From the NCBI RefSeq assembly GCF_004010195.1, contig NC_057757.1, positions 3,986,538 to 4,032,549 of the forward strand: DNA of 46,012 nucleotides, given 5' to 3'. The stretch comes from Chiloscyllium plagiosum. Taxonomy: Eukaryota. The translations under genes were made by a program, and so were the position numbers. Positions 2,173 to 43,430 of the stretch are shown in pieces (position 1 is the stretch's first letter; every line of letters starts with the position of its first letter). The notes beneath the pieces were generated by a model. The model had not been told where the DNA came from and made no database searches. It worked only from the letters and a program-made list of their open reading frames with translations.

Positions 2173-2219
2173 TTACCCTATTAACACAGAGCTTGCTGTG
2201 ATATAGGTTAAATATAATT
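2173..2219 (-). CDS. Possible hydrophobic terminal exon of the Ig-V gene (ELYLTYITASSVLIG*)
   Basis: Two in-frame acceptors (tttcag at 2219, atcacag at 2195), phase 1, hydrophobic run ending in TAA; intron would be only 114 nt. Confidence 0.25.
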
Positions 2220-2333
2220 CTGAAACTGAAACCTATTCAAAAATATATCTTTAAAATCCCTGAACCTCCTTATCTGCTTTATCAGACATTCCAAACTCTT
2301 TTGTTAACCAGAGACATGTTTCCCTGCACTTAC

Positions 2334-2387
2334 CAGTAAATCCGAGGATCATTTTGGACACGTTTGTTCCTGGATTTGTTCCATTGC
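2334..2387 (-). CDS. Probable stalk exon of the Ig-V receptor (GNGTNPGTNVSKMILGFT)
   Basis: 54-nt phase 1-1 exon, strong acceptor ttcttcctctctcag and donor CTG|gtaagt, open frame with two N-glycosylation sequons (NGT, NVS). Confidence 0.7.
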
Positions 2388-4209
2388 CTGAGAGAGGAAG
2401 AAATAACTTGCCTTTATAGAGTACCTTTCACATCCCCAGAAGATCCCCTTAATTCACTCTGAGCTGACACAGAGAATAACAAAGGTTAAAGGAGCAGAAC
2501 AAATCATAAAATGCAACCAAGAAACTTACTAGAAAGGTCTTCAATGTGTTTGGGTTCCTTTCTGTATTGATTTGTCCTGTTTCCTGGGGCAACAGAGATA
2601 TCTTTATATCCTCAGAATGTCCCAACATAATTTACAATTAACTTTTCTCAAATTCCTTCCACAACCTTTAATTGCGATGTCACGCTGACCAATTTACACA
2701 CAGTAAAATCCCAAATGAGCAAATAAGTTAGAAGATTAAGCAATTTGCTTTGTTTCCTCTAGTCTTGCTTGAGGGTGAACAGAATAGTCAGCAGATATCA
2801 TTATCCTTCTTTGATATATCTTAAAAAAAAACAGAGAATGTTGGTGAAACTCAACAGGTCTGGCAATATATATGCAGAGAGAAAAACAGGGTTAACATTT
2901 TGAATCTGGTATGAAAGGAGCTGGAAAATGGTAGTTTTTACATGATTGATGGAGGGGAAGAAGAGGAGTGAGAGAATGGTGAGGGTTCCCAGATTAAAAG
3001 ACAATGGGAGTACTAATCATGGTGGTAAAGGAGCAATTGAGATGAAAAATAGGTGTAAATGAAGGGTTTAATAGGAAAAAAGTGATCCACTTTGTTGATA
3101 TCAAACTCAACAAGACCCAAACAAAACTTATTGAGGTGGGGTGGGGGTGTGGCATGTGAGATGGAAGAGTATATAAGAAAAATGAAGTCGCTCTCTGAAG
3201 GTGTGGAATTCAATATTGAATCATACAAACTGTCAAGTTCCTGAGTGGGGAAATAAGGAGTTGTTCCTCAAACTAAAGAACTGCAGATCTGCAAGGATCT
3301 GTTCTGGGGCTACTGATGTGTGTCATCTTTGATAAATAACCTGGATGAGGGCGTAGAAAGATGGGTTAGTAAATTTGCGGATGACACTAAGGTCGGTAGT
3401 GTTGTGGATAGTTGGATGTTGCAGGTTACAGAAGGACATAGATAAGCTGCAGAGCTGGGCTGAGAGGTGGCAAATGGACTTTAGTACAGAAAAGTGTGAG
3501 GTGATTCACTTTGGAAGAAGTAACAGGAATACAAAATACTGGGTTATTGGTAAGATTCTTGGTAGTGTAGGTGAGCAGAGAGATCTGTGTCCATGTATAT
3601 AAATCCCTGAAAGTTGCCACCCAGGTTGATAAGGTTGTTAAGAAGGCATATGGTGTGTTAGCTTTTATTAGTAGAGAGATTAAGTTTCAGTGCCATGAGG
3701 TCATGCTGCAGCTGCACAAACTCTGGTGAGGCCGCACTTGGAATATTACATACAGTTCTGGCCACTGTATTATAAGAAGAATGTGGAAGCTTTGGAAAGG
3801 GTTCAGAGGAAATTTACTAGGATGTTGTCTGGTATGGAGGGAAGATATTATGAGGAAAGGAAAAGGGATTTGAAGCTGTTTCCATGAGATAGAAGGAGGT
3901 TGAGAGGTGACTTAACTGAGACATATAAGATAATCAGAGGGTTAGATAGGGTGGACAGTGAGACCTTTTTTCCTCAGATGGTAATGGATAGCACGAGGGA
4001 ACATAGCTTTAAATTGAGGGGTGATAGACATAGGACAGATGTCAGAGGTAGTTTCTTTACTCAGAGAGTAGTAAGAGTGTGGAATGCCCTGCCTGAAACA
4101 GTAGTAGACTTGCCAACTTTAAGGACGTTTAAGTGGTCATTGGATAGACATGTGGATGAAAATGGATTAGTGTTGGTTAGATGGGCTTCAGATTGGTTTC
4201 ACAGGTCAC

Positions 4210-4411
4210 AGCACAGCAGGTCAGGCAGCATCCAGGGAACAGGAGATTCGACGTTTCGGGCACAGGCCCTTCTTCAGGAATGGATTCCTGAAGAAGGGCC
4301 TTTGCCCGAAACGTCGAATCTCCTGTTCCCTGGATGCTGCCTGACCTGCTGTGCTGTTCCAGCAATAAAGTTTCAACTTTGATCTCCAGCATCTGCAGAC
4401 CTCACTTTCTC
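4210..4411. mobile_element. Penelope-derived palindromic mini-element, family A, inserted in a CR1 3' end
   Basis: Near-perfect inverted arms; TSD ttcacaggtcac at 4198-4209 and 4412-4423. Confidence 0.8.
4282..4321 (+). ncRNA. Minimal type I hammerhead ribozyme, family A
   Basis: GGAUUC-CUGAAGA-A-GGGC(CUUU)GCCC-GAAA-CG-UC-GAAUCU: core boxes, stem I GAUUC/GAAUC, stem II 4 bp, palindromic ACGU stem III; predicted cut after 4315. Confidence 0.75.
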
Positions 4412-4724
4412 TTCACAGGTCACCACAACATCGAGGGCTGTAATGTTCCATATTCTACATTCTATGATGCCAGAGATCTGAAACAAAAACAGAAATTGCT
4501 GGCAAAAATCAGCAGAGTCTGGCAACATGCATGGGGAAAGAAAAAGCAGAGTTAATTTTGATTCTTCTTAGTTCATTGGTACTGTGGAGCCCTTTGCCAC
4601 ATCCTGTACAGTTACGTAGGAGCCCCGTTGAATTTCCTGACTGGAAGAGGGCAGCTGAGACATTGATCACTGCTTTAGGAGTCATAGAGGTTATTTTTTA
4701 AATCATTATTTTTTATATAGCACG

Positions 4725-5072
4725 GGCAGGCAGTGGAGTAGTGGTAATGTCACTGCATTAATCACCCAGAATGTCACGTTAATATTTCTGCAGACATAGG
4801 GACAAATACTATTGTGGATGATGGGGAAATCTGAATTCAGTATAAATCTGAATTTAATAAGAAAACTAACCTAATGGTGACATTTAAAGCACTGTAAATT
4901 GTCATTGATAAACAAAATGTTCACTAAAGTCCTTTTGGAAAGGAAATCTGCCACTTTATTTGCTCTGGCCTATGCGTGACTCTAGGCTTACAGTAATATG
5001 GTTGTTTCTTAACTACCCTCTGGTCATGGATCTTGGCTTGCCAGTGCTCCCATATTTCCTGAATAAATAAAA
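4725..5072 (+). mobile_element. Third SINE family, old; minus-strand pieces at about 9330-9470, 24190-24420 and 40040-40260
   Basis: Shared ttcactaa.gtcctt..ggaaggaaatctgc..tctggcct..gtgactc core. Confidence 0.6.
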
Positions 5073-5334
5073 TGTCTTTTTTGTCTATTCTTCCATCTAT
5101 GGAATGCTTTATACAGCTCATGTTAAAGATGGCAATAGCAAATTGTTTCTGGAGGGGTTTGATTCTCAGGAGGACAGTCAGAGGTTGACCTGTCAGAGCA
5201 GTGACTGTTCCCAAACAATGAACTGGGGATTGAACCCACAATTTGTTGTCTTGCAGTGTTCCTATTTCACAGCAGCACAGAATTGTTATTGTACAGAAGG
5301 AGGATATTCAGCCCATCTTGCCTGCACTAGCTCT

Positions 5335-5655
5335 TGAAACACATCCATCATAGGACAAGTGAAACAGAGACACGCACGAGAATCCCAAGAAGCATGGCAT
5401 TCCAACTGGAACTCTATCAACAAACACATTGTCTTGGATTCCATTTACCACCCACTGAAGGAAAGAACAGGAAATGACATCACCACAGGAAATGATATCA
5501 CCACAGGAAATGCCATCACCAACCCAAGGAAACCGAAACACAAAAATAGAAAGTGAGCCATACAGCCAGTGCTTCATTCAGAAGCTCACCTAGTATGGTG
5601 ACGAAACATCTGAAAACAAACATTCCAGATCAGTGAGCAAACCTACATCCAGAAC
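5335..5655 (+). mobile_element. Penelope-like family D 3' fragment
   Basis: ORF remnant QRHARESQEAWHSNWNSINKHIVLDSIYHPL plus the same 3' repeat as 34054-34507. Confidence 0.75.
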
Positions 5656-5936
5656 TACTAGTTCGCTTTGGGAAAACTGTTCAGTTTGGACAAGTTGGAC
5701 TGAAGGGTCTGTTTCTGTGCTGTGTGACACTATGACTCTATAATTCCTGTCTGTCCCCCAATACCTCTGTGCACTATTTCTACTGAAATAATCTTCCAGC
5801 GCCTCCAGGTTCTTTGTAATTTTTCAGCTGCTGATAAATCCAGCTGGAAATTTCAGCCTGCAAACTTTGATGCATGATGTGTTTCATTCTCTGCCACTTG
5901 CAGCCAATGCAGGCTGCAATGAGAATATGAAGGTCA

Positions 5937-7320
5937 AAGTTAAAAATCACACAACACCAGATTTTAGTCCAACAGCTTTATTTGAAAGCACTAGCTTTCA
6001 GAGTGCTGCTCCTTCATCAGGTGGTTGTGGAGTATAAGACCGTAAGATACAGAATTTATAGCAAAAGCTTACAGAGTTATGTAACTGAAATTATATCTTG
6101 AAAAAGACCTAGACTGTTTGTTAGGTCTCTCATCTTTTAAAATGATCATGCTGGTTTCAGTCCTTTCATATGTAAATCTCAGAACTTTTTAAAAGTCACA
6201 TTCTCAAGTGAACTTTAACAGTAGGTGCCATGTCATCTCAGATAATGCATTGAAGGTGTGAGGTGCCCTGTGTGATGCTGTCTGTGTCCCAATGTTCAGA
6301 CTGGTTCTATTTCTACAAAAGAGATTTACAGAATCTTACATGGATTCATGCAGTTTTTGAGCAAAATAAAATGTAATTCTGCAAGTACAAATTCACCCTA
6401 AAAACTTATATGTGTCCGTGTGTGTGTGTGTGTGTGGAGGGCTTATGAGCGATTTTGAAAGAGTGTGAGTGTAAAGGGGTATAAGTTGTGAGAGGGTGCG
6501 TGTATGGGAGTGCATGTGTGAGCGTATGAGAGAGAGCTTATGTATGAGAGAAGGTCTGCATGAGTGAATGGGTCTGTAGGAGTGTGTGTGTGTGTATGTA
6601 GTGCAGTGGGGTCACCTGTAGTGTGACATGAAGCAAGGTCCTGGTTGAGGACATTCCCACTGATACCCATGGTGATGGCCTCAACTGGGACCTTGGGTTC
6701 ATGTCACACTACAGATGACCCCACTGCACTACACACACAAACACACACATACATGCACACACACACACGCTCCTACAGACCCATTCACTCATGCAGACCC
6801 TCTCTCATACACAAACTCTCTCTCATACACAAACTCTGTTTAATGTGCTCACACATGCACTCCCACACTCACACCCTCTCACAGACTTATTCCCCCCTTT
6901 ACACTCACACTCACAAACATACACACTCTCTTACAGACACTCATACCAAACACCCCCCACACACAAACCCACATACATACAAACTCACAGACATATCAGT
7001 TTAATTAACACTTGCAGAATTACATTTTATTTTGCTCAAAAACTGCATGAATCCATGTAAGATTCTGTAAATCCCTTTTGCAGAAATAGAGTCAGTCTGA
7101 ACATTGAGGCCAGATAGCCTCACGCAAGCCACCTCACACCTTCAATGCATTATCTGAGGTGACATGGGACCTATTGTTAAAGTTCACTTGAGAGTGTAAC
7201 TTTTAAAAAGTTCTGGGATTTACATATGAAAGAACTGAAACCAACCATCTAAAAGATGAGAGACGTAACCAACAATCCAGGTCTTTGTACACCCCAGTCC
7301 AACTCCGGCACCTCCAAATC
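5937..7320. mobile_element. Penelope-like family B element forming a palindrome of about 1.2 kb
   Basis: Arms at about 6105-6650 and 6685-7285 include mirrored TG/CA tracts; TSD tatgaaggtca at 5926-5936 and 7321-7331; hammerhead core on minus strand at about 5988-6025. Confidence 0.75.
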
Positions 7321-7810
7321 TATGAAGGTCAGCTATAAAAATGAGATTGTTCACCCTTTCATACCTACCTGATTTGATGGACTGTCTGCGATAAACACGA
7401 AAATGATTCAAGTGAGGTGTAATATTAATAAAAACTCTTTTTCTTGGACCATTTAGAAGAGCATACAAGCTCCACAGTACGGCTGGCTATGGAGATGAAA
7501 TATCCCAGCATGCACTGCAGAGCAGCAAGTCTCCTATTAAAATGACGGGACCCGTTATTTCTGTTTGTGAAAGGTACGGGGAGAGTTCAACCTGCATTGC
7601 TCCCGCTTGTCCATCACAGTTGACGTGTCCAAAGCAACATTTCGCAATCCACAACCATGTGACAGAACACAAATGTAGAAAGGGAGAGAGGAAAAGAGGA
7701 AGAAGAGAATGAAAATAAGGAACGAATTTTAATGAAACTTGCGCCAGGCACAGTTTTACCAGTTCTAACTTGCTGCAAGAGTTCGGCTCTGATGTTTTAT
7801 TCCCAGATAG

Positions 7811-8504
7811 ATGTGGAGGTGCTGGTGTTGGACTGGGGTGGACAAAGTTAAAAATCATACAACACCAGGTTATAGTCCAACAGGTTTATTTGGAAGTGCA
7901 GTACAAGCTTTTGAAGCACTGCTTTTCGTCAGATAGCTACTGGAGTAGGATCATAGCATTTATAGGCGAAATTGGGTTCTGCAGCTGCTGGAGATTAGAG
8001 TCAAGATTAGAGTGGTGCTGGAAAAGCACAGCAGGCCAGGCAGCCTCATTTCTGATGAAGGGCTTTTGCCCAGAATGTCGATTTTCCTGCTCCTCGGATG
8101 CTGCCTGGCCTGCGTGTTTTTCCAGCACTACTCTAATTTTGACTCACAGAATTTATAGCAAAAGATCATAGTGTCAAACAAATGATGCAATATATTGAAC
8201 AAACCTAGATTGTTGTTAAGTCTTTCATTTTTAAGGATGGGTTTCAATTCATTAATATGTAAATCCAAAAATGTGACTTCAAAGAAGTTCTGGGATTTAC
8301 ATATTAATGAACTGAAACTTGCAACTCATTCTAAAAGATGAAAGCCTGAACAGCAGTCTAGGTTTGTATGACATTATGATCTTTTGCTTTAAATTCTGTG
8401 ATCTGTGATTCTACTCCACTTGCTACCTGATGAAGGAGCAATGTTCTGAAAGCTTCCAAATAAACCTGTTGGACACAAACCTGGCGTTGTCTGATTTTTA
8501 ACTT
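7811..8504. mobile_element. Penelope-like family B inverted-repeat element with a nested family A copy; further family B pieces at about 12197-12320 and 36735-37152
   Basis: aagttaaaaatcacacaacaccagg terminal sequence in both orientations and an internal inverted repeat. Confidence 0.7.
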
Positions 8505-8632
8505 CATCCCCGATTTTCACAGTGTTATTCAGGACACCTGACCACAAAGATGCTGGTTCGTTAAATATAAGGGCAGAAAGTGAGAATTCAATAACCCCCT
8601 ACTTTCTCCCCTACTCTACTATTTAATCTTTC

Positions 8633-9265
8633 ATAGAACACAGAACATAGAAAAATACAGCGCAGTACAGGCCCTTTGGCCCTCGATGTTGCGCTGATCC
8701 AAGCCCACCTAACCTACACTAGCCGGCTATCCTCCATATGCCTATCCAATTCCCGTTTAAATGCCCATAAAGAGGGAGAGTCCACCACTGTTACTGGCAG
8801 GGCATTCCATGAACTCACGACACACTGAGTAAAGAATCTACCCCTAACATCTGTCCTACCTACCACCCCTTAATTTAAAGCTATGCCCCATCGTAATAGC
8901 TGACTCCATACATGGAAAAAGGTTCTCATGGTCAACCCTATCTAAACCCCTAATCATCTTGTACACCTCTATAAAGTCACCCCTAAACCTTCTTTTCTCC
9001 AATGAAAACAGCCCTAAGTGCCTCAGCCTTTCCTCATACGATCTTCAACTTTCGGAGATCTGTGTACATGGACACCAAGATCTCTCTGCTCATCCACACT
9101 ACCAAGTATCCGACCATTAGCCCAGTACCCCGTCTTTTTGTTACTCTTACCAAAGTGAATCACCTCACACTTACCTACATTGAACTCCATTTGCCACCTT
9201 TCTGCCCAGCTGTGCAACTTATCTATATCCCGCTGTAACCTGATACATCCTTCCTCACTGTCAAA
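8633..9265 (-). mobile_element. CR1 LINE 3' portion with internal deletion
   Basis: WAERWQMEFNVGKCEVIHFG; short tandem tail (catagaa)n. Confidence 0.85.
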
Positions 9266-9718
9266 CACATCCTTCCTCACTTTCATTTTTGTCATGGCAC
9301 CATTGCCAAGTCCAGTATTGTTGCCAGTCCCTAATGGCACTTGAACTGAGTGCTTTGCTTGGCCACTTCAGAAGGCAATTAAGACCCAGCGGCACTGGCT
9401 GTTGGTATGGAGTCACATATAAGTCAAAATAGGTAAGGATGGCAGATTTTCTCTCCTAAAAGTGGAATTGATAAATTAATTTTGTACATTTTGTACGTGT
9501 CAAAAAAAACCCAAATCAAATGCCCAGAAAACCAATGATTCCTTGTTTTTAACATACTTGTGGTTGAGGCTCTGGGGGAGAGAGTTCATAAGGTTGACCA
9601 CCACAAAACATTTCTCCTCAGCTTAGTCCCAAAAGGCTGCAACTGCACATGAGCTGCCAAGTCAGTGCCAATTAAATGCTGATGCAGGCATTAGTTGAAG
9701 GGGGTGACACTCCTGTAC

Positions 9719-10078
9719 CTGGTATGACATGAAGCTGGGTCCCACGCCCCTTCATCTGGATAATGGGCAGAGGCTCGAGGAGTTCGACGAGGCAGATGTA
9801 GAGGCCACTGTCACTGGCGATGGCACCACTGATGCGCAACAAGGAGCTCCTCGCTTGCAGGTCCACCTCAAGTACCAGTCTCTTGCTGGTCTTGCCTCCC
9901 TTAACGTTGCCAGGCACAATCGCATACACCTCACCTTCGGGCAGATTCCACTGTAAGGCTACCAGTTGTGACGGATGATTGGACGGGTCAAAGTGGCAAT
10001 ATAGTGCCACATCATCCCCTTCCTCCACCTTCAACAAGTCGGGAGACTGGTGGACCCCACCATGAACTGGACCTCCTG
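9719..10078 (-). CDS. Germline-joined VJ-type Ig V-domain exon, CD28/CTLA-4/NKp30-like receptor
   Basis: Translates to ..VHQSPDLLKVEEGDDVALYC..QW..DSGLYICLVELLEPLPIIQMKGRGTQLHVIP: B-strand Cys, C-strand Trp, DxGxYxC, J-like GxGTxLxV; polypyrimidine plus tandem AAG/CAG acceptor (10078 or 10075), phase-1 donor CCAG|gtacag. Confidence 0.93.
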
Positions 10079-10134
10079 CTTTAAGAAAGAGAAAAAGGTA
10101 AGTAGACTAATTAGCAAAGTTAGAACATGTGAAC

Positions 10135-11165
10135 TTCAGTGTGAGTTTGCCAGTTTGATACAACATCAGCTGGACAGGAAGAGACAGAGAGTAATGGTGG
10201 AGAGTTGTTTTTCAGATTAGTGGCCATAGTGATCCACAGGATTTGGTACTGGGTCCACTTATATCAATAACTTAGATAAGAATACCGAAGACATGGTTAG
10301 AAAGTTTGTAGATGACAACAAATTTGGTCAAAATAGTGGACAGTCTAGAAGGTTATCTAAGAGTGCAAAGAGATCAACTGATTCAATGGGCTGAAGAGTG
10401 GCAGATGGAGTTTAATTTGGATAAATGTAAGGTGTTGCATTTTAGCAAAACAAACAAGGGCAGGATTTGTACAATTAAAAGTAGGGCCTTGGGTAGTGTT
10501 GTCGAACAGAGACGCAGGGGTTCATGTGTATTATTCTTAGAAATGTAAAGACAAGGTGGTTAAGAAGGTGTTTAGCATGCTTGCCTTCATTGCTCAGGCC
10601 TTTTAGTAAAGGAATTGGGATGTTATGTTGAGGTTAAACAGGACATTGGTGCAACCTTTTCTGGAGTCCAGTTCCAGTCGCCTTGTTATAGGAAGGATAT
10701 TATTACACTGGTGAGGATTCAGAAGAGATTTACCAGGACGTTGCCAGGAATGGAGGGTTTTGAGTTCTAAGGAGGGGCTGCATAGGCTGGGACTTCTTTC
10801 ACTGGAATGTAGGAGATTGAGAGGTGATCTTACAGAGGTTTATAAAATGGTGAGGGGTGTGGACAAGGTGATGACAGGTGTCTTTTCCCTAGGGTGGGGA
10901 ATTATAAGATTTGGGGAAATATTTTTAAGGTGAGAGGAGAAAAATAAAAATAAGACATGAGAGGCAATTTTTTTCACACAGGAAGTAGTTTATGTGTGGA
11001 ATGAATATCCAGAGGAAGTGGTGTAAGCGGGTACAATTATAGCACACAAATAGGAAAGATTTGGAGAGGGATGGGCCAAGTGCAGGCAGGTGGGACTAGT
11101 TTAATTTGGGATTATGGTCAGGGTGGACTGAAGGGTCTGTTTCCATCCTGTATGATTCTCTAAGT
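10135..11165 (+). mobile_element. CR1 LINE 3' portion
   Basis: WAEEWQMEFNLDKCKVLHF motif and CR1 3' tail. Confidence 0.9.
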
Positions 11166-12049: not shown

Positions 12050-13205
12050 AAGCTCCCTGCTCAAAACCTGCCTCTACACTGCCTCTCCCACCAAACACTC
12101 ACAGGACAGGGACAGCGCGGGGTTTGATACAGAATAAAGCTCCCTCTACACTGTACCTCAGGAAACAGTCTCAGGGCAGAGACAGCATAGGGTTATGATT
12201 TGGAGTTGCTGGTGTTGAACGGGCTGGACAAAGTTAAAAATCACACAACACGAGGTTATAGTCCACCAGGTTTATTTGGAAGCACTAGCTTTCGGGCATT
12301 GCCTCTTCATCAGGTGACCACAGGTTCCACAAAGGTTAGACACAGTGTAATATTCTCTCGACACTGTTCATCAGCAAAAACTCCCAGGATAGGGACAGCA
12401 CAGGGCTAGGTATAGAGTACAGCTCCTCTAAACTGTCTCCATCAAACACTCGCAGGACAGGGATAACACAGGATTAGATACAGAGTAAAGTTCCCTCTAC
12501 ACTGTCCCCATCAAACACTCCCAGGACAGGGTTAGGTACAGACTAAAGCTCCCTCTACACTGTCCCCATCAAACACTCTCAGGACAGGGTTAGATACAGA
12601 CTAGAGCTCCCTCTACACTGTCCCCATCAAATACTCTCAGGACGGTTAGGTACGGACTAAAGCTCCCTCTACACTGTCCCCATCAAACACTCCCAGGACA
12701 GGGTTAGGTACGGACTAAAGTTCCCTCTACACTGTCCCCATCAAACACTCTCAGGACAGGGTTAGGTATGGACTAATGCTCCCTCTACACTGTCCCCATC
12801 AAACACTCTCAGGACAGGGTTAGGTATGGACTAAAGCTCCCTCTAAACTGTCCCCATCAAACACTCCCAGGGCGATTAGGTATGGACTAAAGTTCCCTCT
12901 ACACTGTCCCCATCAAATACTCTCAGGACGGTTAGGTACGGACTCAAGTTCCCTCTACACTGTCCCCATCAAACATTCTCAGGACAGGGTTAGGTATGGA
13001 CTAATGCTCCCTCTACACTGTCCCCATCAAACATTCTCAGGACAGGGTTAGGTATGGACTAAAGCTCCCTCTACACTGTCCCCATCAAACACTCCCAGGA
13101 CAGGGTTAGGTACGGACTAAAGTTGCCTCTACAGTGTACCCATCAAACACTCCCAGGATAGGGACAGCATCGAGTTAGACACAGAGTGAAGCCCTCTCTA
13201 CACTT
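12050..13205 (+). repeat. Satellite of about 56-68 bp units; other arrays at about 17875-18010, 31975-32660 and 42712-42808
   Basis: Tandem ctccctctacactgtccccatcaaacactcccaggacagggttag units. Confidence 0.92.
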
Positions 13206-14691: not shown

Positions 14692-14749
14692 CTTGAATTA
14701 ATAACAGCAAGAGACTGATTCCAGTCACACTGGAGAGCTTCATATTCAT
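14692..14749 (-). CDS. Signal-peptide exon of the V-type Ig-superfamily gene (MNMKLSSVTGISLLLLLIQ)
   Basis: Hydrophobic leader, phase-1 donor CAAG|GTAACA compatible with the V exon; upstream ttcttgcag acceptor (exon edge 14781) implies a 5' UTR exon. Confidence 0.8.
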
Positions 14750-16749: not shown

Positions 16750-18010
16750 GACTGTAAGTTCATGGCCAGGCAGCAAAGGTGACCCTGGGTGTGGTAGTCG
16801 GGTGGGGGTTTAAGGATAGCTGATTACTGACATCATCTGTCACTGATATTGCATTACCCAGTGAACCACTAACTGAGGCCACTATCAAGAAAGTCATTGA
16901 CCAACAGGGCTACAATATTGACCTCCCTCCCTTTGTTGACTTCCCCTTCAATGAGTAATCTCTGGGCCTTGACTGTTGATAGAGCAAAAGGGTACATTAC
17001 TGGCTGAAGCAGAGTGGCTTGGTTAGGAGTTAAAAAAACAGAACGCCACTCTAACCCACAGTGCGGGTAGTCAGGTCCGGACCAGCCCAGAGACTGGGTC
17101 CCTCCAAGAGCAGGCTGGGTCAGTTCCTGACCTGGCTGATTGCAGGTCAACACGACAGGGTGGTTACAAAACAGACAGAGGCCATTCAGCCCACTGAGCC
17201 TTCCCACTGTCAATGTGGAGCAACCAATGTTTAGCAGACTGCAAACATTCCACTGCCCATCGAGTCGCATTGCTCCCCACTCAGAACCCATCACCTCAGT
17301 CTCCAATATGGTCTACACATTACAGGAACAGGTCATTCAGCCCAACTCGGTCCCTGCTGGAATTGAGGTGAAGGCAGCTCGTCCCACATGCTCTCCTCAG
17401 AGGGAGGCCCAATGCGTGACGGAAAGAGCAGGAATCCTTCACAATTCCTCGGACAATGACTCTCCCTCGGTGGAGATGAGGGGAGGGGATTGTGAGGAGG
17501 TGGGTAATACAGATGGGAAGGGAGCAGCAGATGAAGGGCCTCAGTGTTGTTGGCGTGAGAGATCGAGAGATCGAGTGCAGTGAGCAATCAAAGGCCTGGC
17601 ACGTGGGTGAAGCCTCAGGCTAGTTGTTAGGATTCTGCTGCTTTTGGCAGCTCTCAGCCCAGGCTGCAGGCCAGAGAGTAACAAGCCAATCACAGTAGTT
17701 TCTTCGCCCATAGGCCAGACAGCCATGAAGAGAGACGCTGTGAGGGAAATGAGATGGGAACAAGACGACAGTCAGATCTCATCTTTTGCTGATACGTGCG
17801 ATTTGCAGATTAAAGTCCTATTCGACAGTGAACTGAGGGGAACGGGATCCCTGGACAGAGCCCAATAAGATGCTGCAGACAGCACGGGGTTAGATACAGA
17901 GTCAAGCTCCCTCTACACTATCCCCATCAAACACTCCCAGGACTGGGACAACACGGGGTTAGATACAGTGTAAAGCTCCTCTACACTGTCCCCATCAAAC
18001 ACTCCCAGGC
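16750..18010 (+). repeat. Segmental duplicate, copy A (copy B at about 30850-32100)
   Basis: About 1.1 kb of collinear similar sequence sharing the same junction into the satellite. Confidence 0.9.
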
Positions 18011-20151: not shown

Positions 20152-20209
20152 CTTGAGTTAATAACAGCTAGAGGCAGATTCCAGTGACACTGGAGAGTTT
20201 CATGTCCAT
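20152..20209 (-). pseudogene. Duplicated leader exon with premature stop (MDMKLSSVTGICL*LLLTQ)
   Basis: Near-identical to 14692-14749 with flanks, retained donor (AAG|gtaaag) and acceptor; TTG>TAG at 20170-20168. Confidence 0.85.
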
Positions 20210-22048: not shown

Positions 22049-22218
22049 CTACAGGTTAGGAGTGGGGTCAACAGAGGTGTTGCACATCTCGATGTGGACG
22101 TGGGAGGTTATCCCCTTGTAAACACGTTGAACATTCAGCAGCCTCCCTAACCTCTGACCCTTTGTGATCGCTCCAGAATAACGATCAGGCTCAATATTGA
22201 AAATCTTCACACAGTAAC
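22049..22218 (-). CDS. LECT2: LECT2-like gene, exon 4 ([56 protein letters not shown])
   Basis: ctgactgcag acceptor, TAG at 22051-22049; SHVHIE (HxH) motif and DPT..L C-terminus typical of LECT2. Confidence 0.96.
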
Positions 22219-22767
22219 CTGCAGTCAGAGAGATTAGGAGACATTAACCGAGAGGATTCTGACAGGGTCAGTGCTGAGAGAATTACATTTGGAATATCAT
22301 GAGCAAATCTGGGCACCGTGCCTAAATGAAGGATATGTTGGCCTTGGAGGAGGTTCACAGGAATTATCTGGGGTCAAAGGGCTTGTCGTATGAGGAATGG
22401 TTGAGGAGTCTGGGTCTGTACCGATGGAGTTTAGAAGGATGGGGGTGGTAGGATCTAATTAAAGCTTACAGAATAATGAAAGGCCTACAGAGAGTGCATG
22501 TGGATAAGATGTTTCCACTAGTAGGAGAGACTAGGACAGAGTGAAAGGATGAACCAAGATGAAGAGGAATTGCTTCAGCCAGAGGATGGTGAATCTGTAG
22601 AACTCATTGCAACATAGGGCAGCAGATTTTAAGTCATTGAGTGTCTTTGATTTGGAGACAGATAGGTTCTTGATTAGTTAGAGGGATCAAGGGGATGGGG
22701 AAAATGAAGGAGAATTAGGTTGAGAAACATATTAGCTATTATCCAAGGGCCTAATTCTGCTCCTATA

Positions 22768-22970
22768 GTGTGTGTGTGTGTGCGTGTGCGCATGTTAGTG
22801 TGATTCTGTGCGTGTTTGTGTGTGTGTATGCGTTAGTTTGATTGTGCATCTATATGCGTGTTAGTGTGATTGTAAGTGTGCATGTTAGTATGATTGTGTG
22901 TGTGATTGAGCATCTGCATGTGTGTTAGCATGATTCTGTGTGTGTTTGTGCGTGTGTGTTAGTGTGATTG
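22768..22970. repeat. Degenerate TG microsatellite
   Basis: Direct inspection. Confidence 0.9.
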
Positions 22971-23487
22971 AATGCTATAACCCAGCAGCAAAGGTTTAGA
23001 CTGTCACAGAACATCTGGAAAAGCTGAAGTTTAAAGTGCTGAAGTGCTTTAAATAACACACAATGAATCAGATCTGAAAATGTGGACTGTTTATCAGTGG
23101 AATTTGGGATTGTCATAGAATTATCTTGTGTGTACATTTGATGAGAGACATAAAAGTGGTGAACAGAAAGCTCATAATAAAGCTCCTCAAGACTTTTGTT
23201 GCTTTGGGGGCAGTTCACTGATTTAATTCCAGAGATGAAGGGTCTGTTTTACAGGGAGCAATTGAGCAGTTTGGGCCAATACTCTGTGCAGTTCAGAAGA
23301 ATGAGAAGAGATCTAATTGTGGTCTATAAGATGCTAAAGAGGACAAACAAAGTCAATGTATAGAGGATGTTTCCCCATGCTGGGCAAGCTAGAATGAGAG
23401 CTTTAGGATAAAGGCGGCAGATGTAAAACTGAGATGGAAAGGGCGCGTCGTGAAGGACAGTCCACTCCCTCTCTCTCTGTGTCTCAC

Positions 23488-23633
23488 CTTGTCCCCGCAT
23501 CATCACTCCATTATCAATCGCATTGCCGTTATCATAGGGATTGACCCGTTTTATCAGTCTCCCAGTGAAAGGGGCATAGGTCGTCGAGTTATCATTACAC
23601 CGCACGTCAACCCCCAGGTGCCTGAGTTTGCCT
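23488..23633 (-). CDS. LECT2: LECT2-like gene, exon 3 (GKLRHLGVDVRCNDNSTTYAPFTGRLIKRVNPYDNGNAIDNGVMMRGQ)
   Basis: tatccag acceptor, AAG|gtgaga donor, 146 nt, phase 2 to 1; HxxxD zinc motif, YAPFTG and NAIDNGV are LECT2/M23 hallmarks. Confidence 0.96.
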
Positions 23634-24600
23634 CTGGATACAACAGAACACAGTTAGAATGCACCCCACCTCACCACCACCATCACCACCAACCTCCGCC
23701 CCCCCCCCCTCAGGTTGTGGTGACAATGTTCACTGAATGCATCTTACAGGATGGTGAGACGCCTGGATGGAATGGATGTGGAAAACATGTTTCTATTAGT
23801 AGGAGAGACCAGGACCTGAAAGCACAGCCTCAGAGAGAAGGCGGCAACCCTTTAGAACTGAGATGAGGAGGAATGTCTCGAACTAGAGGGTGGTGACTCT
23901 GTGGAGTTCATTGCTGCAGAGAGCTGTGGAGGCTGAGTCATTGAGTGCCTTTAATGGAGAGAGAGATAGGTTCTTGATTGGTAAGGGGGAGTCAAGGGTT
24001 ACAGGGAGAATGCGGTTGAGAAACCTATCAGCCAATGGCAGCCGATAGACTGAATGGCCAATTCTACCGACATATCTTAAGGTCCTATGGTCACTCAGAC
24101 TGACTCTTGAGTTTGAAGGGGCTTATCACATGAGGAAGAGATGGTCAGGCTGGGTCCGTATTCACTGGAGCTTAACAGAGTTGTTGCCCAACATCATCGG
24201 CATTTGGTGACCATCCCTAACTGCCCCTTGATAACATGGACTTGCTAGAGCCTGTTCGAGGAGGCTGTTTAGAATCAAGCCCATTGTTGAGGGTCTGGAG
24301 TCATGTCTCCATGGGTGGTCCCCATGCCGCTCCCTCAGCTATTCAAGATCGTTTTATCAAACGGATTTAGATTTTACCATCAGCCATGCTGAGATTCAAA
24401 CCCAGATGATTAGCTGAGGGGTTCAGCATTACAGGTCCAGCATGGATTGTCAGATTTTCCTTTGCAAACTGTATAAATTGTGTTTCCCTTTATGTTTTGG
24501 CATTCTTCCCAGTCTGTCCTGGTCTGATGTTTGTCAGATAGCATTTGGTCTGTTTCCACAGCAATATTTCAAGATTCTTTCTAAAACTTCCTTCACGCAG

Positions 24601-24843
24601 ATTAGATTAGATTAGATTAGATTCCCCAACAGTGTGGAAACAGGCCCTTCAGCCCAACAGGTCCACACCGACCCTCCAAAGAGTAACCCACCCAAACCCC
24701 TTTTCCCTCTGACTAATGCACCTAATTGACAATTTAAGCATGGCCAATTCACCTAACCTGCACATCTTTGGACTGTGCGAGGAAACCGAAGCATCCGGAG
24801 GAAACCACACAGACACGGAGAGAATGTGCAACCTCCACACAGA
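24601..24843 (-). mobile_element. HE1-type V-SINE, 5'-truncated
   Basis: Homologous to 27157-27470; (attag)n tail. Confidence 0.85.
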
Positions 24844-24911
24844 TGTGGCCATCGTTTCCTGAGCCAGCATTTATTGCCCATCCATAAATCCCCCAGAGAA
24901 CGTGGTGGTAA

Positions 24912-25110
24912 GCTCTTCCAGCCCCTATACCCTTCCTTATTTCTGTAACATTCTCCAGCCCCTAGAACCCTCCCTATCTCTGTAACCTCCTCCAGCTCCT
25001 ATCCTTCCATATCTGTCCCCTCCTCCAGCTCTACACCTTTCGCTATCTCTGTCACCTCCTCCAGCCCCTACATCCCTCTTTATCTCTGTAACTTCCTGCA
25101 GCTCTGTAAT
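24912..25110 (+). repeat. Pyrimidine-rich minisatellite of about 36 bp units
   Basis: ctcctccagcccctac..cctccctatctctgtaac units. Confidence 0.8.
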
Positions 25111-25439
25111 TATCAATGGTTTCTGTGCTCCACTAGTGTGACCTGACAGACCTCCTACATTTCATCCCCCCCCACCAATGGTGGCCATGTCTTTAGATGT
25201 CTAGGTGCCAATCTCTGGAATTCCCTCTCTAACCCTCGTTCACTCTCACTCTCCATCTATTCGTCCTTGCAACCTCATCCTACCTCATATTGGGGATGGG
25301 AAATCGGGCGGGGGTTTGGGAACTCCACCTTAAAGCACTGTTTGATGTTTTACTACATGCAAGGTGCTACACAAATGCAAACGGTTCGGTTTTGGAGCTG
25401 GGAGTGGCGTGTGTCATGAATGGGATTACAAATAATTAC

Positions 25440-25536
25440 CTGGGTGCTCCATACGCTCCACTGCCATAGCTATCTGTCCCTCTTACCCTGTTTGTTGGAT
25501 TACTATGGCACAGTTTACCCCAGCGACCAGCTGCAA
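25440..25536 (-). CDS. LECT2: LECT2-like gene, exon 2 (VAAGRWGKLCHSNPTNRVRGTDSYGSGAYGAPR)
   Basis: tgtcccacag acceptor, AG|gtaatt donor, 97 nt, phase 1 to 2; aligns with the LECT2 N-terminus (W..IC....SN.IR.CD..GCG.Y.A.R). Confidence 0.93.
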
Positions 25537-25631
25537 CTGTGGGACAGAGAGGACCCCATCAATTTACTGGAACTGACAAAATATCTAAGATCGAAAACAC
25601 AATATAAAGCAATTGCTTTTAATTCTTTGTC

Positions 25632-27680
25632 ACAGAGTCATAGAGATGTACAGCATGGAAACAGACCCTTCAGTCCAAATCCTCCATGATATCCTAACGT
25701 AATCTAGTCTCATTTGCCAGCACTTGGCCCACATCCCTCCAAACCTTTCCAATTCATATATCCATCCAGATGCCTTTTAAATACTGAAATTGTACCAGCC
25801 TCCACCATTCCATGCAAACACCACCCTCTGCGTGAAAAAGTTGCCCCTGAGGTCCCTTTTATATCTTTCCCCTCTCACCCTAAACTTATACCCTCTAGTT
25901 CTGAACTCCCCCACCCCAGGGAAAAGACCCTGTCTATTTACCCTATTCATGCCCCTCATGATTTTATAAATCTCCATAAGGTCACCCCTCAGCCTCTGAC
26001 GCTCCAGGGAAAATTGCCCTAGTGTCTCCCTAAAGTTCAAACCCTCCAACCCCAGGAACAGCTTTGTAAATGTTTTCTGCACCCACTCAGGTCTCACAAT
26101 GTCTTCTCTCCAGCAGAGAGACCAGAAATGAATACAATATTCCAAAAGTGGCCAAACCAATGTCCTTTACAGCTGCAACATGACCTCCCAACTCCTATAC
26201 TCAATGCACTGAGCAATAAAGGCAAGTGTACCAAATGCCCTCTTCATTAACCTGTCTACCTGAGACTTCGCTTTCAAGGAACTATGAATGTGCACCCCAA
26301 GGTCTCTTTGTTCAGCAACAGTCCCTAGCACCTGCCTTTTAAGTGTATAAGTCCTGCCCTGATTTGCCTTTCCAAAATGCAGCACCTCACATTTATCTAA
26401 ATTAAACTCCATCTGCCATTCCTCAGCCTTTTGGCCCATCTGATCAAGGTCCTGTTGTACTCTGAGCTAACCCACTTCACCATCCACTGCACCTCCAATT
26501 TTGGTGTCATCTGCAAACTTACTAACCATTCCTCCCACACTTGTATCTAAATCGTTTATATAAATAATCAAAAGTAGTGGATCCAGCACCAATCCTTGTG
26601 GCACTCCACTGGTCACAGGCCTCCAGTCTGAAAAACAACCCTCCACCACCACCCTCTCGCTCCTACTGTAAAGTCAATTTTGTATCCAAATGGCTAGTTC
26701 TGCCTGAAGATCTAATCTTGCTAATCTTATTGAAGGCCTTACTGATACCCATATCGACAACGTCCACCTATCTGCCTTCATTGATCTTTGCCATTTTTTT
26801 CAAAATACTCAGTCAAGTTAGTGAGACATGATTCACCACGCACAAAGCCATGTCGACTATCCTTAATCAGTCCTTGCCTTTCCAAATACATGCAGATCCT
26901 GTCTCTCAGAATCCCCTCTGAAGCTCACCTACCACTGACGTCAGACTCTGACGGCCTATGATTCTCTGGCTTTTGCTTACCATCACCTTTCTTAAATAAT
27001 GGCACCACATTAGCCACCCTCCAGTTGTCCAGCATCTCACCCCTGGCAAATATCTCAGCAAGAGGCCCAGCAATCGCTTGCCTTGCACCCTACAATGCTC
27101 TGAGATACACATGATCAGGTCCTGGGGTTTATCCACTTTTATGTGTTTTATGTGTTGGGGTGGCACGGTGGCACAGTGGTTAGCACTGCTGCCTCACAGC
27201 GCCACAGACCTGGGTTCAATTCCTGACTCAGGCGACTGACTGTGTGGAGTTTGCACATTCTCCCCGTGTCTGCGTGGGTTTCCTCCAGGTGCTCCGGTTT
27301 CCTCCCACAGTCTAAGGATGTGCAGGTTAGGTGAATTGGCCACGCTAAATTGCCTGTAGTGTTAGGTAAAGGGGTAAATGTAGGGGAATGGGTGGGTTGT
27401 GCTTCAGCGGGTCGGTGTGGACTTGTTGGGCCGAAGGGCCTGTTTCCACACTGAAACTAATCTAATCTAACCACGTCCACCTCCTCTTCTGTAATATGGA
27501 CACTTTTCAACATATCACTGTATTTCCCCAAGTTCTCTCACTTCCATATCCTTCTCCACAGTAAATGCTGACACAAAATGCCTGTTTAGTATCTCACCCA
27601 TCTGCTGCAGTTCCACACATTGTTGGCCTTGTAGATCTTGAAGAAGCTCTATTCTCTCCCTAGTTACCCTTTTGCCTTTA
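25632..27680 (-). mobile_element. CR1 LINE (RT region) interrupted by a V-SINE
   Basis: [38 protein letters not shown] motifs. Confidence 0.92.
27157..27470 (+). mobile_element. Full-length HE1-type V-SINE
   Basis: tRNA-like head with A/B boxes (tggcacagtggtt, gggttcaattcc), V-domain tgtgtggagtttgcacattctccccgtg, (ctaat)n tail. Confidence 0.9.
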
Positions 27681-27684
27681 ATGT

Positions 27685-28475
27685 GCTCGTGCTGGGAGTG
27701 CAGGAGTGAGGGTGGATGTAGAGGCGAATGCAAGTGTGTCAGGTGAGAACAGGAGAGTGGGCCCAGACAGAGTGGGACATTATAGAGTGTGTGGAGTGAG
27801 GGGGAGAGTTGGGCAAGACTGGGTGGGATATGAAAGGGTGTGGGAATGAGAGTAAAATTGGGATTAGACGAGGTAGGATATTAAAGACTGTGGGGAGTGA
27901 GGNNNNNNNNNNNNNNNNNNNNNNNNNNNNNNNNNNNNNNNNNNNNNNNNNNNNNNNNNNNNNNNNNNNNNNNNNNNNNNNNNNNNNNNNNNNNNNNNNN
28001 NNNNNNNNNNNNNNNNNNNNNNNNNNNNNNNNNNNNNNNNNNNNNNNNNNNNNNNNNNNNNNNNNNNNNNNNNNNNNNNNNNNNNNNNNNNNNNNNNNNN
28101 NNNNNNNNNNNNNNNNNNNNNNNNNNNNNNNNNNNNNNNNNNNNNNNNNNNNNNNNNNNNNNNNNNNNNNNNNNNNNNNNNNNNNNNNNNNNNNNNNNNN
28201 NNNNNNNNNNNNNNNNNNNNNNNNCAAAGTGTGCGGGAGTGAGGGGGAGAGTGGGATTAGACTGGGTGGGATATCAAAGTGTGCGGGAGTGAGGGAGAGG
28301 GTGGGATTAGACTGGGTGGGATATCAAAGCAAGTGTGATTAGACTGGGTGGGATATCAAAGTGTGCAGGAGTGAGGGGGAGAGTGGTATTAGACTGGGTG
28401 GAACGCTACAAAGTGCAAGGAGAGTGGGAGCATAGTCATTGGGATATTAAAAGGTGCAAAATGTGAGGGGAGAGT
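27685..28475 (+). repeat. G-rich minisatellite of about 50 bp units spanning an assembly gap (N 27903-28224)
   Basis: gtgtgcgggagtgagggggagagtgggattagactgggtgggatatcaaa units. Confidence 0.85.
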
Positions 28476-28796
28476 AAATCGCTTGATGTTTGTACTTTAC
28501 ATCCTAGAACGAGACTGAAGCTCGGGACACTGTGATTCAGCAATAACACCACTGAGCTTCTGGAACAATCCACGGACAGTCCTGAGAGAAAAAGGCTGAA
28601 ATAGCTCAGGGACAAACAGTGTTAAAAAAAAACACCCTGAGCAGAAAATGGAAGCCCCCATTTTCAATTCCTGTAAGTTTGATCATTTCAAACATTGGAC
28701 TGTCCCTACAAACATTTTGAAAAATAGAATCACTCTATAATTGCAAAACATTTCTACTACGTGCCTTATTGCTAGAAACAACATGAAATGACTCAC

Positions 28797-28836
28797 CCTG
28801 AGAGAAGAGAAATAGAAGGATAAGTCCCTTCAGCAT
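28797..28836 (-). CDS. LECT2: LECT2-like gene, coding exon 1 (signal peptide MLKGLILLFLFSQ)
   Basis: ATG at 28836, hydrophobic 13-aa leader, consensus phase-1 donor CAGG|GTGAGT; joins exon 2 in frame to give MLKGLILLFLFSQVAA-GRWGKLC. Confidence 0.85.
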
Positions 28837-30849: not shown

Positions 30850-32100
30850 ACTGACAGTTCATGGTCACGCGGCAAGGGGAAATGTTGGTTATGAACAGGG
30901 GCTCTGGGGTTGTTTAAGGACATCTGATTACTGATATCTTCCATCGCTGACATTGCATTACCCAGTGAACCACTAACTGAGGCCACTAGCGAGCAAGTCA
31001 TTAACCAACGGGGCTACAATATTGACCTCTTCCCCTTTGTTGACTTCCCCTTCAATGAGTAATCCCTGGGCCTTGATTATTGATTGAGCACAAGGGCTCT
31101 CTATCTGAAGCAGAGTGGCTTGGTTAGGAGTTAAAAAAAAACATAATGCCACTTTAGCCCAAGTGCGGGTGGTCAGGTCCAGACCATCCCAGAGACTGGG
31201 TCCCTTCTTCAAGAGCAGGCTGGGTCAGTTCCTGACCTGGCTGACTGCAGGGTGACAGGATAGGGTGGTTACAGAGGCCATTCAGCCCACTGAGCCTTCC
31301 CACTGTCAATGTGGAGCAACCAATGTTTAGCAGACAGCAAACATTCCACAGCCCGAGTCTCATTGCTCCCCATTCAGAACCCATCACCTCAGTCTCCAAC
31401 ATGGTCTACACATTGTGGGAACAGGCCATTCAGTCCATTTGGTGCCTGCTGGAATTGAGGTGAAGGCAGATGGTCCCACACACTCTCCTCAGAGGGAGGC
31501 CCATTGCGTGATGGAAAGAGCAGGAATCCTTCGCAATTCCTTGGACAACGACTCTCCCTCGGTGGAGATGAGGGGAGGGGGTTGTGAGGAGGTGGGTAAT
31601 ACAGATGGGAAGGGAGCAGCAGATGAAGGGACTCAGTGTTTTGGCGTGAGAGATTGAGAGATCGGGTGCGGTGAGCAATAAAAGGCCTGGTACGTGGGTG
31701 AAGCCTCAGGCTAGTTGTCAGGATTCTGCCGCCTTTGGCAGCTCTCAGCCTTGGCTGCAGGCCAGAGGGTAACTGTCTGTCTCTCCAAGCCCATCACAGC
31801 AGTTTCTTCACCCATGGGCCGGACAGTCATAAAGAGAGGCTGTGTGGGCAATGAGATGGGAACAAGTCAAGGGTCAGATCATATCTTTTGCTGATATGTG
31901 CAATTTGCTGATCAAAGGCCAATTCAACAGTGAATTGAAGGGAACAGGATCCCTGGACAGAACCCAATGAGATACAGCAGACAGCATAAGGTTAGAAACA
32001 GAATAAAGCTCCCTCTACACTGTCCCCATCAAACACTCCCAGGACAGGGACAGCACGGGGTTAGATACAGAGTAAAGCTCCTTCAACATTATCCTCATCA
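30850..32100 (+). repeat. Segmental duplicate, copy B
   Basis: Collinear with 16750-18010. Confidence 0.9.
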
Positions 32101-32677
32101 AACACTCCCAGGACAGGAGCAGCACAGGGTTAGGTGTGGAGTAAAACTGTTTCTACACTGTCCCCATCAAACACTTCCAGGACAGGGACAACACGGGGGT
32201 TAGATACAGAGTAAAGCTTCCTCTACACTGTCCCCCATCAAGCACTCCCAGGACAGGTAGTCCAAGGGGTTAGATACAGAGCAAAGATGTCTCTACACTG
32301 TCCCCCATCAAATGCTCCCAGGACAAGGACTGTAAGGTATTAGAGACAGAATAAATCTCGCTTTACACTGTCCCCGATCAAATACTCCCTGGACAGGTAC
32401 AGCACAGGGTTAGATATAGAGTTAAGCTCCCTTTACACCATCCCCCATCAAATACTTCCAGGACAGGGACTGTATGGTGTCAGATCCAGAGTGAAGTGCC
32501 TTCTACACAGTCAGGAGGAATGCCTGTCAGAAGCAGCATGTTTGACAATCTCGCTTTACACTGTCCCCGATCAAATACTCCCTGGACAGGTACAGCACAG
32601 GGTTAGATATAGAGTTAAGCTCCCTTTACACCATCCCCCATCAAATATTTCCAGGACAGGGACTGTATGGTGTCAGA

Positions 32678-42809: not shown

Positions 42810-43430
42810 TGGTCAGAGGGTCAGTGCTGAGGGAGCATCACACTGTCAAAGAGTCTGTCCTGAGGAAGTGCAGTACGGTTGGAGTCAGTACTAAGGGAGC
42901 ACTACACTGTCAGAGGGTCAGTGCTGAGGGAGTGCTGCACTGTTGGAGTCAGTACTAAGGGAGCGCTACACTGTCAGAGGGTCATGCTGAGGGAGTGCTG
43001 CACTGTTGGAGTCAGTACTAAGGGAGCACAACACTGTCAGAGGGTCAGTGCTGCACTGTTGGAGTCAGTACTACGGGAGCGTTACACTGTCAGAGGGTCA
43101 GTGCTAAGGGAGCACTGTCCTGTAGAAAGGTCAGTGCTGAAGGAGTGCTGCAATGTTAGAGGGTCAGTGCTGAGGGAGTGCCACACAGTTGGAGCATCAG
43201 TGCTGAGGTATTGCTGTACTGTCAGTGGGTCAGTGCTGAGGGAGTGCTGCACTGTCAGATTCAGTGCTGAAGGATCACTGCACTGTCAGTGGGTCAATGC
43301 TGAGGGAGTGGGCAGCGTCAGAGAGTCAGTGCTGAGCAAGTGGGCACTGTTGGAGGGTCATTGCTGAGGAAGTGAGCAGGGTCACAGGGGCTATCTTTCA
43401 GAGGGGACATTAAACTGGGGCATCTGTCTC
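42810..43430 (+). repeat. Minisatellite of about 31-33 bp units derived from a Deu-SINE segment
   Basis: Tandem cagtgctgagggagtgctgcactgtcagagggt, running into Deu-like ctatctttcaga..acattaaactgggg. Confidence 0.85.

Follow-up and report, generated by a model that had tools for sequence, protein, structure and literature searches.

The window analysed here, a 46,012-nucleotide stretch of the Chiloscyllium plagiosum genome (contig NC_057757.1), holds on its minus strand the leader, V and stalk exons of an immunoglobulin-type receptor gene and, directly upstream of them, an intact LECT2-like gene. The V+J exon (9719–10078, minus strand; 360 nt, phase 1 at both ends) encodes an IgV domain with a C-x6-PLP-x5-GxG loop, and its limits are exactly those proposed in the earlier note. 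It is flanked by an acceptor (...TTAAAG) at 10080–10079 and a GT donor at 9718, and an alternative NAGNAG acceptor places the exon start at 10075. The translation starts with VHQSP, continues through DSGLYIC-LVELLEPLPIIQMK-GRGTQLHVIP, ends with DSGLYICLVELLEPLPIIQMKGRGTQLHVIP and contains two cysteines. The coding part of the leader exon, which encodes the signal peptide (14692–14749, minus strand; 58 nt, phase-1 GT donor), was located by tblastn to orthologues, by its splice sites and by an open frame into the V exon. Stalk exon 1 (2530–2583, minus strand; 54 nt, 18 residues with an N-glycosylation sequon) and stalk exon 2 (2334–2387, minus strand; 54 nt) follow, and the leader, V and two stalk exons form one open frame. 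The transmembrane (TM) and tail exons gave no tblastn match within the window and should lie beyond its position 1. Two candidates for them picked by eye, near 7550 and 5900, were discarded, as neither orthologues nor splice joints support them. In relatives, too, the stalk consists of 54-nt repeat exons in phase 1 that carry glycosylation sequons and vary in number between species and isoforms (P0163, P0018, P0003). The 18-residue repeat occurs twice here, four times in the cloudy catshark and about three times in Narcine, and stalk exon 1 is skipped in some isoforms of relatives (P0003 and P0005).

Four public sequencing runs (X1, X3, X8 and X14) were examined over positions 2200–10400. None is on record as RNA; X1 and X3 are guessed to be RNA and X8 is unlabelled. 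X1 yields a 1527-nt contig with the joints 2582–9718 and 2386–2529 at GT–AG ends, and the latter joint also appears in X3. The V-exon contigs stop at the exon edges and use both acceptors, those of X1 and X8 reaching 10077 and that of X3 reaching 10081. Since spliced joints are what mRNA gives, X1 and X3 were taken as transcripts, and the 975 nt downstream and approximately 190 nt upstream of the V exon in the X1 contig fit a full mRNA. The single-cell run X14 contributed no reads to this interval, with about 6% of the run read. The receptor gene is real, spliced and expressed; lack of expression, which the earlier note had named as evidence against its proposal, is contradicted by the joints in the X1 and X3 contigs.

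The LECT2-like gene (22049–28836, minus strand) encodes 150 residues in four coding exons (28836–28797, 25536–25440, 23633–23488 and 22218–22049, with boundaries counted by hand). Its third exon matches human LECT2 (E = 4e-11), and the protein carries the HxxxD and HxH zinc motifs. This gene is a synteny marker and not part of the receptor. LECT2 exon 4 contains a stop codon of its own, and the fusion of LECT2 and receptor in GCC21374 (P0008) was for this reason treated as an artefact of gene modelling. Between the two genes lies a second, decayed copy of the leader exon, interrupted by an in-frame stop (20152–20209, minus strand); over 175 nt, this region and that of the live leader are 84.6% identical. 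The segments 16803–18009 and 30905–32112 form a 1.2-kb duplicate with 87% identity. Together with the decayed leader, this suggests that the upstream region was duplicated in tandem long ago. Minisatellite arrays with units of 50–70 nt occupy 572–1224, 12334–13204, 31990–32512 and 42820–43374, and a unit of 58–70 nt recurs at 12.3–13.2, 17.9–18.0 and 32.0–32.5 kb. Many LINE reverse-transcriptase fragments and SINEs are scattered elsewhere in the window.

The V domain matches the Pfam V-set profile (E = 4e-10, 40.3 bits against a cut-off of 26), and its AlphaFold model is an all-beta V fold with a pLDDT of 89. Its cysteines are the canonical B–F pair only; the VHQSP start and the lack of a second intradomain cysteine pair are both as previously described. 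The J-like G strand sits within the V exon and is followed by the GT donor. No recombination signal sequence (RSS) was found at the exon ends; a single degenerate RSS-like match of the 23-spacer type occurs in the upstream intron, some 480 nt in. The exon thus has neither the separation of V from J nor the flanking RSS of a rearranging Ig or TCR V segment, in agreement with the proposal of a germline VJ receptor encoded by a single exon.

A homologue profile search returned 268 matches at E values up to 0.001, of which the best 150 were listed; an alignment search returned 11 proteins from 8000 candidates scored, and a homologue search at near lengths found nothing. Orthologues occur in Chiloscyllium punctatum, Hemiscyllium, Stegostoma, Rhincodon, Heterodontus, Cetorhinus, Scyliorhinus, Hypanus, Amblyraja, Narcine and Callorhinchus. 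The gene is already modelled in RefSeq, yet without a name; the models include LOC132835256 (Hemiscyllium), XP_072447528 (C. punctatum), LOC125448797, LOC125487818 and LOC121851470 (Callorhinchus). No paper on the gene was found in open-licence PMC or bioRxiv. V-domain identity ranges from about 45 to 97% (97% for C. punctatum, 94% for Hemiscyllium and 46% for Callorhinchus). In a V-domain tree of 84 rows, drawn from 119 extracted rows after exclusion of 16 isoform duplicates and 19 redundant distant rows, the 12 orthologue rows form one clade (98/99), with the chimaera basal, followed by batoids and sharks. PLPI is invariant in all 12 orthologues, each of which carries L[EK]PLPI, and GxG is kept in 11. 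Of the two features that the earlier note regarded as shared with CTLA-4, the PxP motif therefore stands, while VEL occurs in only three of the 12. Full-length orthologues consist of leader, V domain, stalk, TM segment and a short basic tail. The tail was judged on orthologues, because the tail exon lies outside the window. Five of seven orthologue tails have no tyrosine, and the other two have one tyrosine each outside any ITIM, YxxM or YxN context. None of the seven TM segments checked contains Lys or Arg, and the TM motif YxxxxT is absent from the orthologue segments. In Stegostoma isoform X3 (P0013), splicing from a site inside the V exon removes everything from strand C′ to strand G, and with it the PLP loop. 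In the Hypanus (P0015) and Amblyraja (P0017) models, the LEPLPI domain is separated from the stalk and TM region by one or two V domains of paralogue type, which reflect either exon shuffling or model fusion.

Among the matches listed by the profile search are also amphibian single-V proteins with SPLPI-type loops and short tails, from Xenopus, Lithobates, Hyperolius, Engystomops and Microcaecilia. They join the shark clade with moderate support in two trees (82/88 and 89/88) and are unresolved in a third. The earlier suggestion that the gene is lineage-specific is accordingly not supported, as it has orthologues in sharks, rays, skate and chimaera and probable kin in amphibians.

The best 150 of the 268 profile matches further comprise paralogue groups with PLP-like loops, many of which have paired ITIM-like tyrosines in their tails (P0019, P0024, P0032, P0056, P0084, P0069, P0124, P0172, P0115 and P0066). 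A second cysteine pair, absent from the receptor gene, occurs in the C′–C″ region of P0019, P0023, P0024, P0027, P0075 and P0076. Four species (horn shark, whale shark, stingray and cloudy catshark) have an orthologue and a paralogue on contigs of identical size, with accessions five apart in the cloudy catshark, and two related genes show the same pattern in the caecilian Microcaecilia. The horn shark model P0019 fuses LECT2 to an ITIM paralogue. From the shared contigs and fused models, we infer that these genes form one clustered locus resembling those of paired receptors. Two fused models from two lineages (P0061, and P0171 from Geotrypetes), from which alone a B7-like neighbour, lying outside the window, is known, each join a paralogue to a single-V B7-like domain whose best PDB match is B7-H3, other V-set proteins matching about equally well. 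These two domains are 30% identical. They span residues of about 230–355 in P0061 and 20–150 in P0171 and carry an extra cysteine pair. When the V domain was modelled in complex with the B7-like partner from P0061, with alignments not used and the two proteins from different host species, the score was 0.01, which speaks neither for nor against binding.

A 2024 survey counts nine members in the CD28 family of jawed vertebrates and names CD28/CTLA4/ICOS, CD28H, CD28HL1–3, CD28X and PD-1 (PMC11599192). The pattern C-x6-PxP-x5-GxG is common there to shark CD28/CTLA4 homologues, CD28H, CD28HL2 and CD28X (PMC11599192 S2/S4), and PLP variants of the loop occur in skate CD28/CTLA4 and gar ICOS (PMC11599192). 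The epaulette CD28H loop (EVLIEIPPPVYRMS) has the same register as the C-x6-PLP-x5-GxG of the receptor (PMC11599192). The earlier description of a CD28/CTLA-4-type loop with LEPLPI thus holds, in the register of shark CD28-family members. As far as the family is characterised in that survey, the receptor resembles it in its single IgV–stalk–TM–tail architecture, with leader, V and stalk in the window and TM and tail in the orthologues (the skate and stingray models have 2–3 V domains). It also shares the proline motif in the CDR3-like loop followed by GxG (YxC-x6-P[PL]P-x5-GxG in the same register) and the occurrence in cartilaginous fish. The family motif is EIP or (M/L)YPPPY, whereas the receptor and its orthologues have L[EK]PLPI. 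Judged on the seven orthologue tails and their TM segments, the receptor further lacks a cytoplasmic tyrosine motif and the TM YxxxxT, as well as a stalk cysteine, and its stalk of 54-nt repeat exons sets the gene apart. Its sole neighbour in the window, the LECT2-like gene, is not among the synteny markers named for the family in the text of PMC11599192.

CD28 and CTLA-4 proper are defined by (M/L/I)(Y/F)PPPY, a second V-domain disulfide and the TM motif YxxxxT; the receptor has LEPLPI and two cysteines, and its orthologues have no YxxxxT. CD28H and CD28HL1–2 carry EIP and a YxN or Y[ED]SF tail; the receptor has LEP at the EIP position. A term search of all nine supplements of PMC11599192 for EPLP and for the accession prefixes of three orthologues found no occurrence. 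The epaulette orthologue XP_060710624 differs from the epaulette CD28-family accessions listed in PMC11599192, including those of the three cassette genes (CD28/CTLA-4 proper). Clear orthology to a described shark gene, the other outcome that the earlier note had held decisive against it, was therefore not seen with any of the epaulette CD28-family genes listed in that survey. We do not file the receptor as a member of the CD28 family, because its V-domain loop agrees with the family and its tail does not. On the outside, it probably works like one.

In the F–G region, the closest resemblance to a single family member lies with CTLA-4. The last 42 residues of the V domain align with human CTLA-4 (PDB 1i85 and 5tru) ungapped (E = 5e-6, the best of 55 PDB matches), whereas CD28 reaches E values of 1.2–1.8 in the same F–G region search. 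The GxG bulge motif and the loop length are shared as well, but the similarity is limited to strands E–G and MYPPPY is replaced. The 14-residue loop that had been likened to CTLA-4 is correct in length, but this length is common among VJ receptors. CTLA-4 itself has a second intradomain disulfide and a YVKM tail, neither of which appears in the receptor domain or the orthologue tails. In Foldseek, bovine CTLA-4 is level with TCRs (E = 1.1e-8, TM 0.75), and CD28 matches the model with Z 12.9 and an rmsd of 2.7 over 110 aligned residues. In a ranking by ESM features, the full-length orthologue from C. punctatum has CTLA-4-like clusters in second and third place and CD28 in seventh, which serves as a lead only. 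For the chimaera orthologue, the best 60 PDB matches are antibodies and TCRs, with no CTLA-4 among them.

CD28 and CTLA-4 grip B7 through the proline loop. By analogy, the receptor, consisting of leader, V domain and glycosylated stalk with the TM segment and short basic tail of its orthologues, would bind a B7-type ligand via the conserved PLP loop. That this loop is invariant from chimaera to sharks, in the CD28 register, suggests that its ligand is a conserved self molecule, most likely a B7-type one; the B7 identity is an inference from this comparison. Since the orthologues have no tyrosine motif and no charged TM residue, a non-signalling role is likely, and the receptor would act as a competitor or tether for its ligand. 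It would tune the ITIM-bearing paralogues by competing for a shared ligand, and its reach would depend on how many 18-residue repeats the stalk contains. The best reading of the gene is accordingly a putative non-signalling CD28-type member of an undescribed paired-receptor cluster. The combined proposal, in which PLP-loop binding of a B7-type ligand is joined to a non-signalling competitor or tether that balances ITIM paralogues, is the one we moderately favour.

The main rival is an independent germline VJ family of paired receptors following the logic of NITR, SIRP or PILR, with a CD28-like loop that arose from shared fold ancestry or convergence. In such a family the ligand would be a non-B7 molecule (a homophilic partner, a glycoprotein or a microbial surface), and the receptor would serve for adhesion or as a decoy. 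The clustering of paralogues that differ in V number and bear ITIM-like tails would fit it, as would the extra V domains in the skate and stingray models (P0017 and P0015) and the fact that generic antigen-receptor V domains are the best global matches. The trees leave room for it too: they rest on about 118 columns with an unresolved backbone, and the PLP-loop paralogues do not form one clade (2% of bootstraps). Against this stand the exact CD28-family loop register and the invariance of the loop over the whole chondrichthyan radiation, which is more in keeping with a conserved self ligand than with one from a pathogen. We regard the independent family, together with its non-B7 ligand, as a serious possibility that is nevertheless probably incorrect.

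The earlier note had placed the gene between CD28 and NKp30, with an NKp30-type organisation. Read in this manner, it would be an NKp30 (NCR3)-type activating receptor or an intermediate, binding B7-H6. The germline single-exon VJ domain with one disulfide and the VHQSP start do recall NKp30 (PDB 3noi and 3pv6), and divergent NCR3 subtypes have reportedly been found in sharks. However, the VxQSP start and the single cysteine pair are found as well in many paralogues and in one EIP-type (CD28H-like) protein, and the F–G loop of human NKp30 has 11 residues, three fewer than that of the receptor, and is proline-free. NKp30 carries a TM arginine, the basic residue used for the CD3-zeta/FcR-gamma adaptor, whereas the seven orthologue TM segments have none. 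NKp30 is absent from the best 60 of 299 PDB matches of the receptor domain (P0001) and from its 55 F–G-region matches, while the NKp30-like controls P0125 and P0096 match human NKp30 first (1e-12 to 1e-14). It is not among the 50 rows listed in the fold searches either, which says little in either direction. Trees, in which group labels were assigned by motif and the rows exclude true CD28, CTLA-4, ICOS and PD-1, place the receptor with EIP-type (CD28H-like) domains, the EIP rows being a branch of their own. A 45-row tree set NKp30-like and SIRP-like rows against all proline-loop rows; the two sets split at 100/98, with and without the loop columns. An AU test of a forced clade of the receptor with NKp30-like rows gave p = 0.067, short of rejection. 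The MHC lists of PMC10751288 have no LECT2 or chemotaxin entry, and 'chemotaxin' is missing from its named sawfish MHC-chromosome list that holds NCR3; this test is weak, two shark sheets giving LOC identifiers only. A bridge between CD28 and NKp30 is not supported by these sequence comparisons, and we consider an NKp30-type receptor unlikely.

The closest whole-domain sequence match of the receptor is a TCR V-alpha (E = 2e-8, among the best 60 of 299 PDB matches), which also leads in structure (Foldseek 9e-10; Z 16.8, rmsd 2.1 over 107 aligned residues). No orthologue has a C1 domain, and P0010 and P0022 each show only one V-set/Ig match; the V domain is followed by 18-residue stalk repeats and not by the C1 domains of UrIg/PRARP. 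The Ig/TCR complex lies on stingray chromosome 26 and on epaulette chromosome-27 scaffolds (LOC1328076-79xx) as given in PMC12227049. The orthologues, on a 182-Mb stingray contig and at LOC132835256, show no sign of linkage to this complex, from which the receptor gene appears to lie apart (PMC12227049). Because of the missing C1 domain and this apparent distance, the TCR likeness is probably generic, reflecting the VJ fold and PDB sampling. The gene probably says little about the RAG-invaded ancestor, and the relevance to antigen-receptor origin that had been claimed for it is weak. That it is a remnant close to the still unsplit VJ exon in which the RAG transposon inserted (UrIg/PRARP type) is highly improbable: the TCR V-alpha match and the GxGT J-like strand within the same exon would agree with it, but TCRs are over-represented in the PDB, FGxG is absent (Lys replaces Phe/Trp), no C1 domain follows and the orthologue positions differ from those of the complex in PMC12227049.

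Returning to the CD28-type reading, a further branch of this type is likely, because the loop is kept in sharks, rays and chimaera and the gene is missing from the 2024 catalogue as presented in PMC11599192. Together with its paralogues, the receptor suggests, beyond the nine members of that survey, a branch that is clustered and organised like paired receptors. The fullest version, an ancient tenth branch in which a LECT2-linked cluster of PLP-loop VJ genes, extending from chimaera and sharks to caecilians and frogs, comprises one non-signalling member, several ITIM paralogues and an adjacent single-V B7-like ligand, is put forward as a speculative and rather doubtful proposal. The finding is of interest mainly to comparative immunologists, for whom it provides, in the receptor and its paralogues, named candidates to match with the shark and amphibian B7-family proteins, with a candidate ligand next door. 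If true, the tenth-branch cluster would be an overlooked checkpoint system in which receptor and ligand are still linked.
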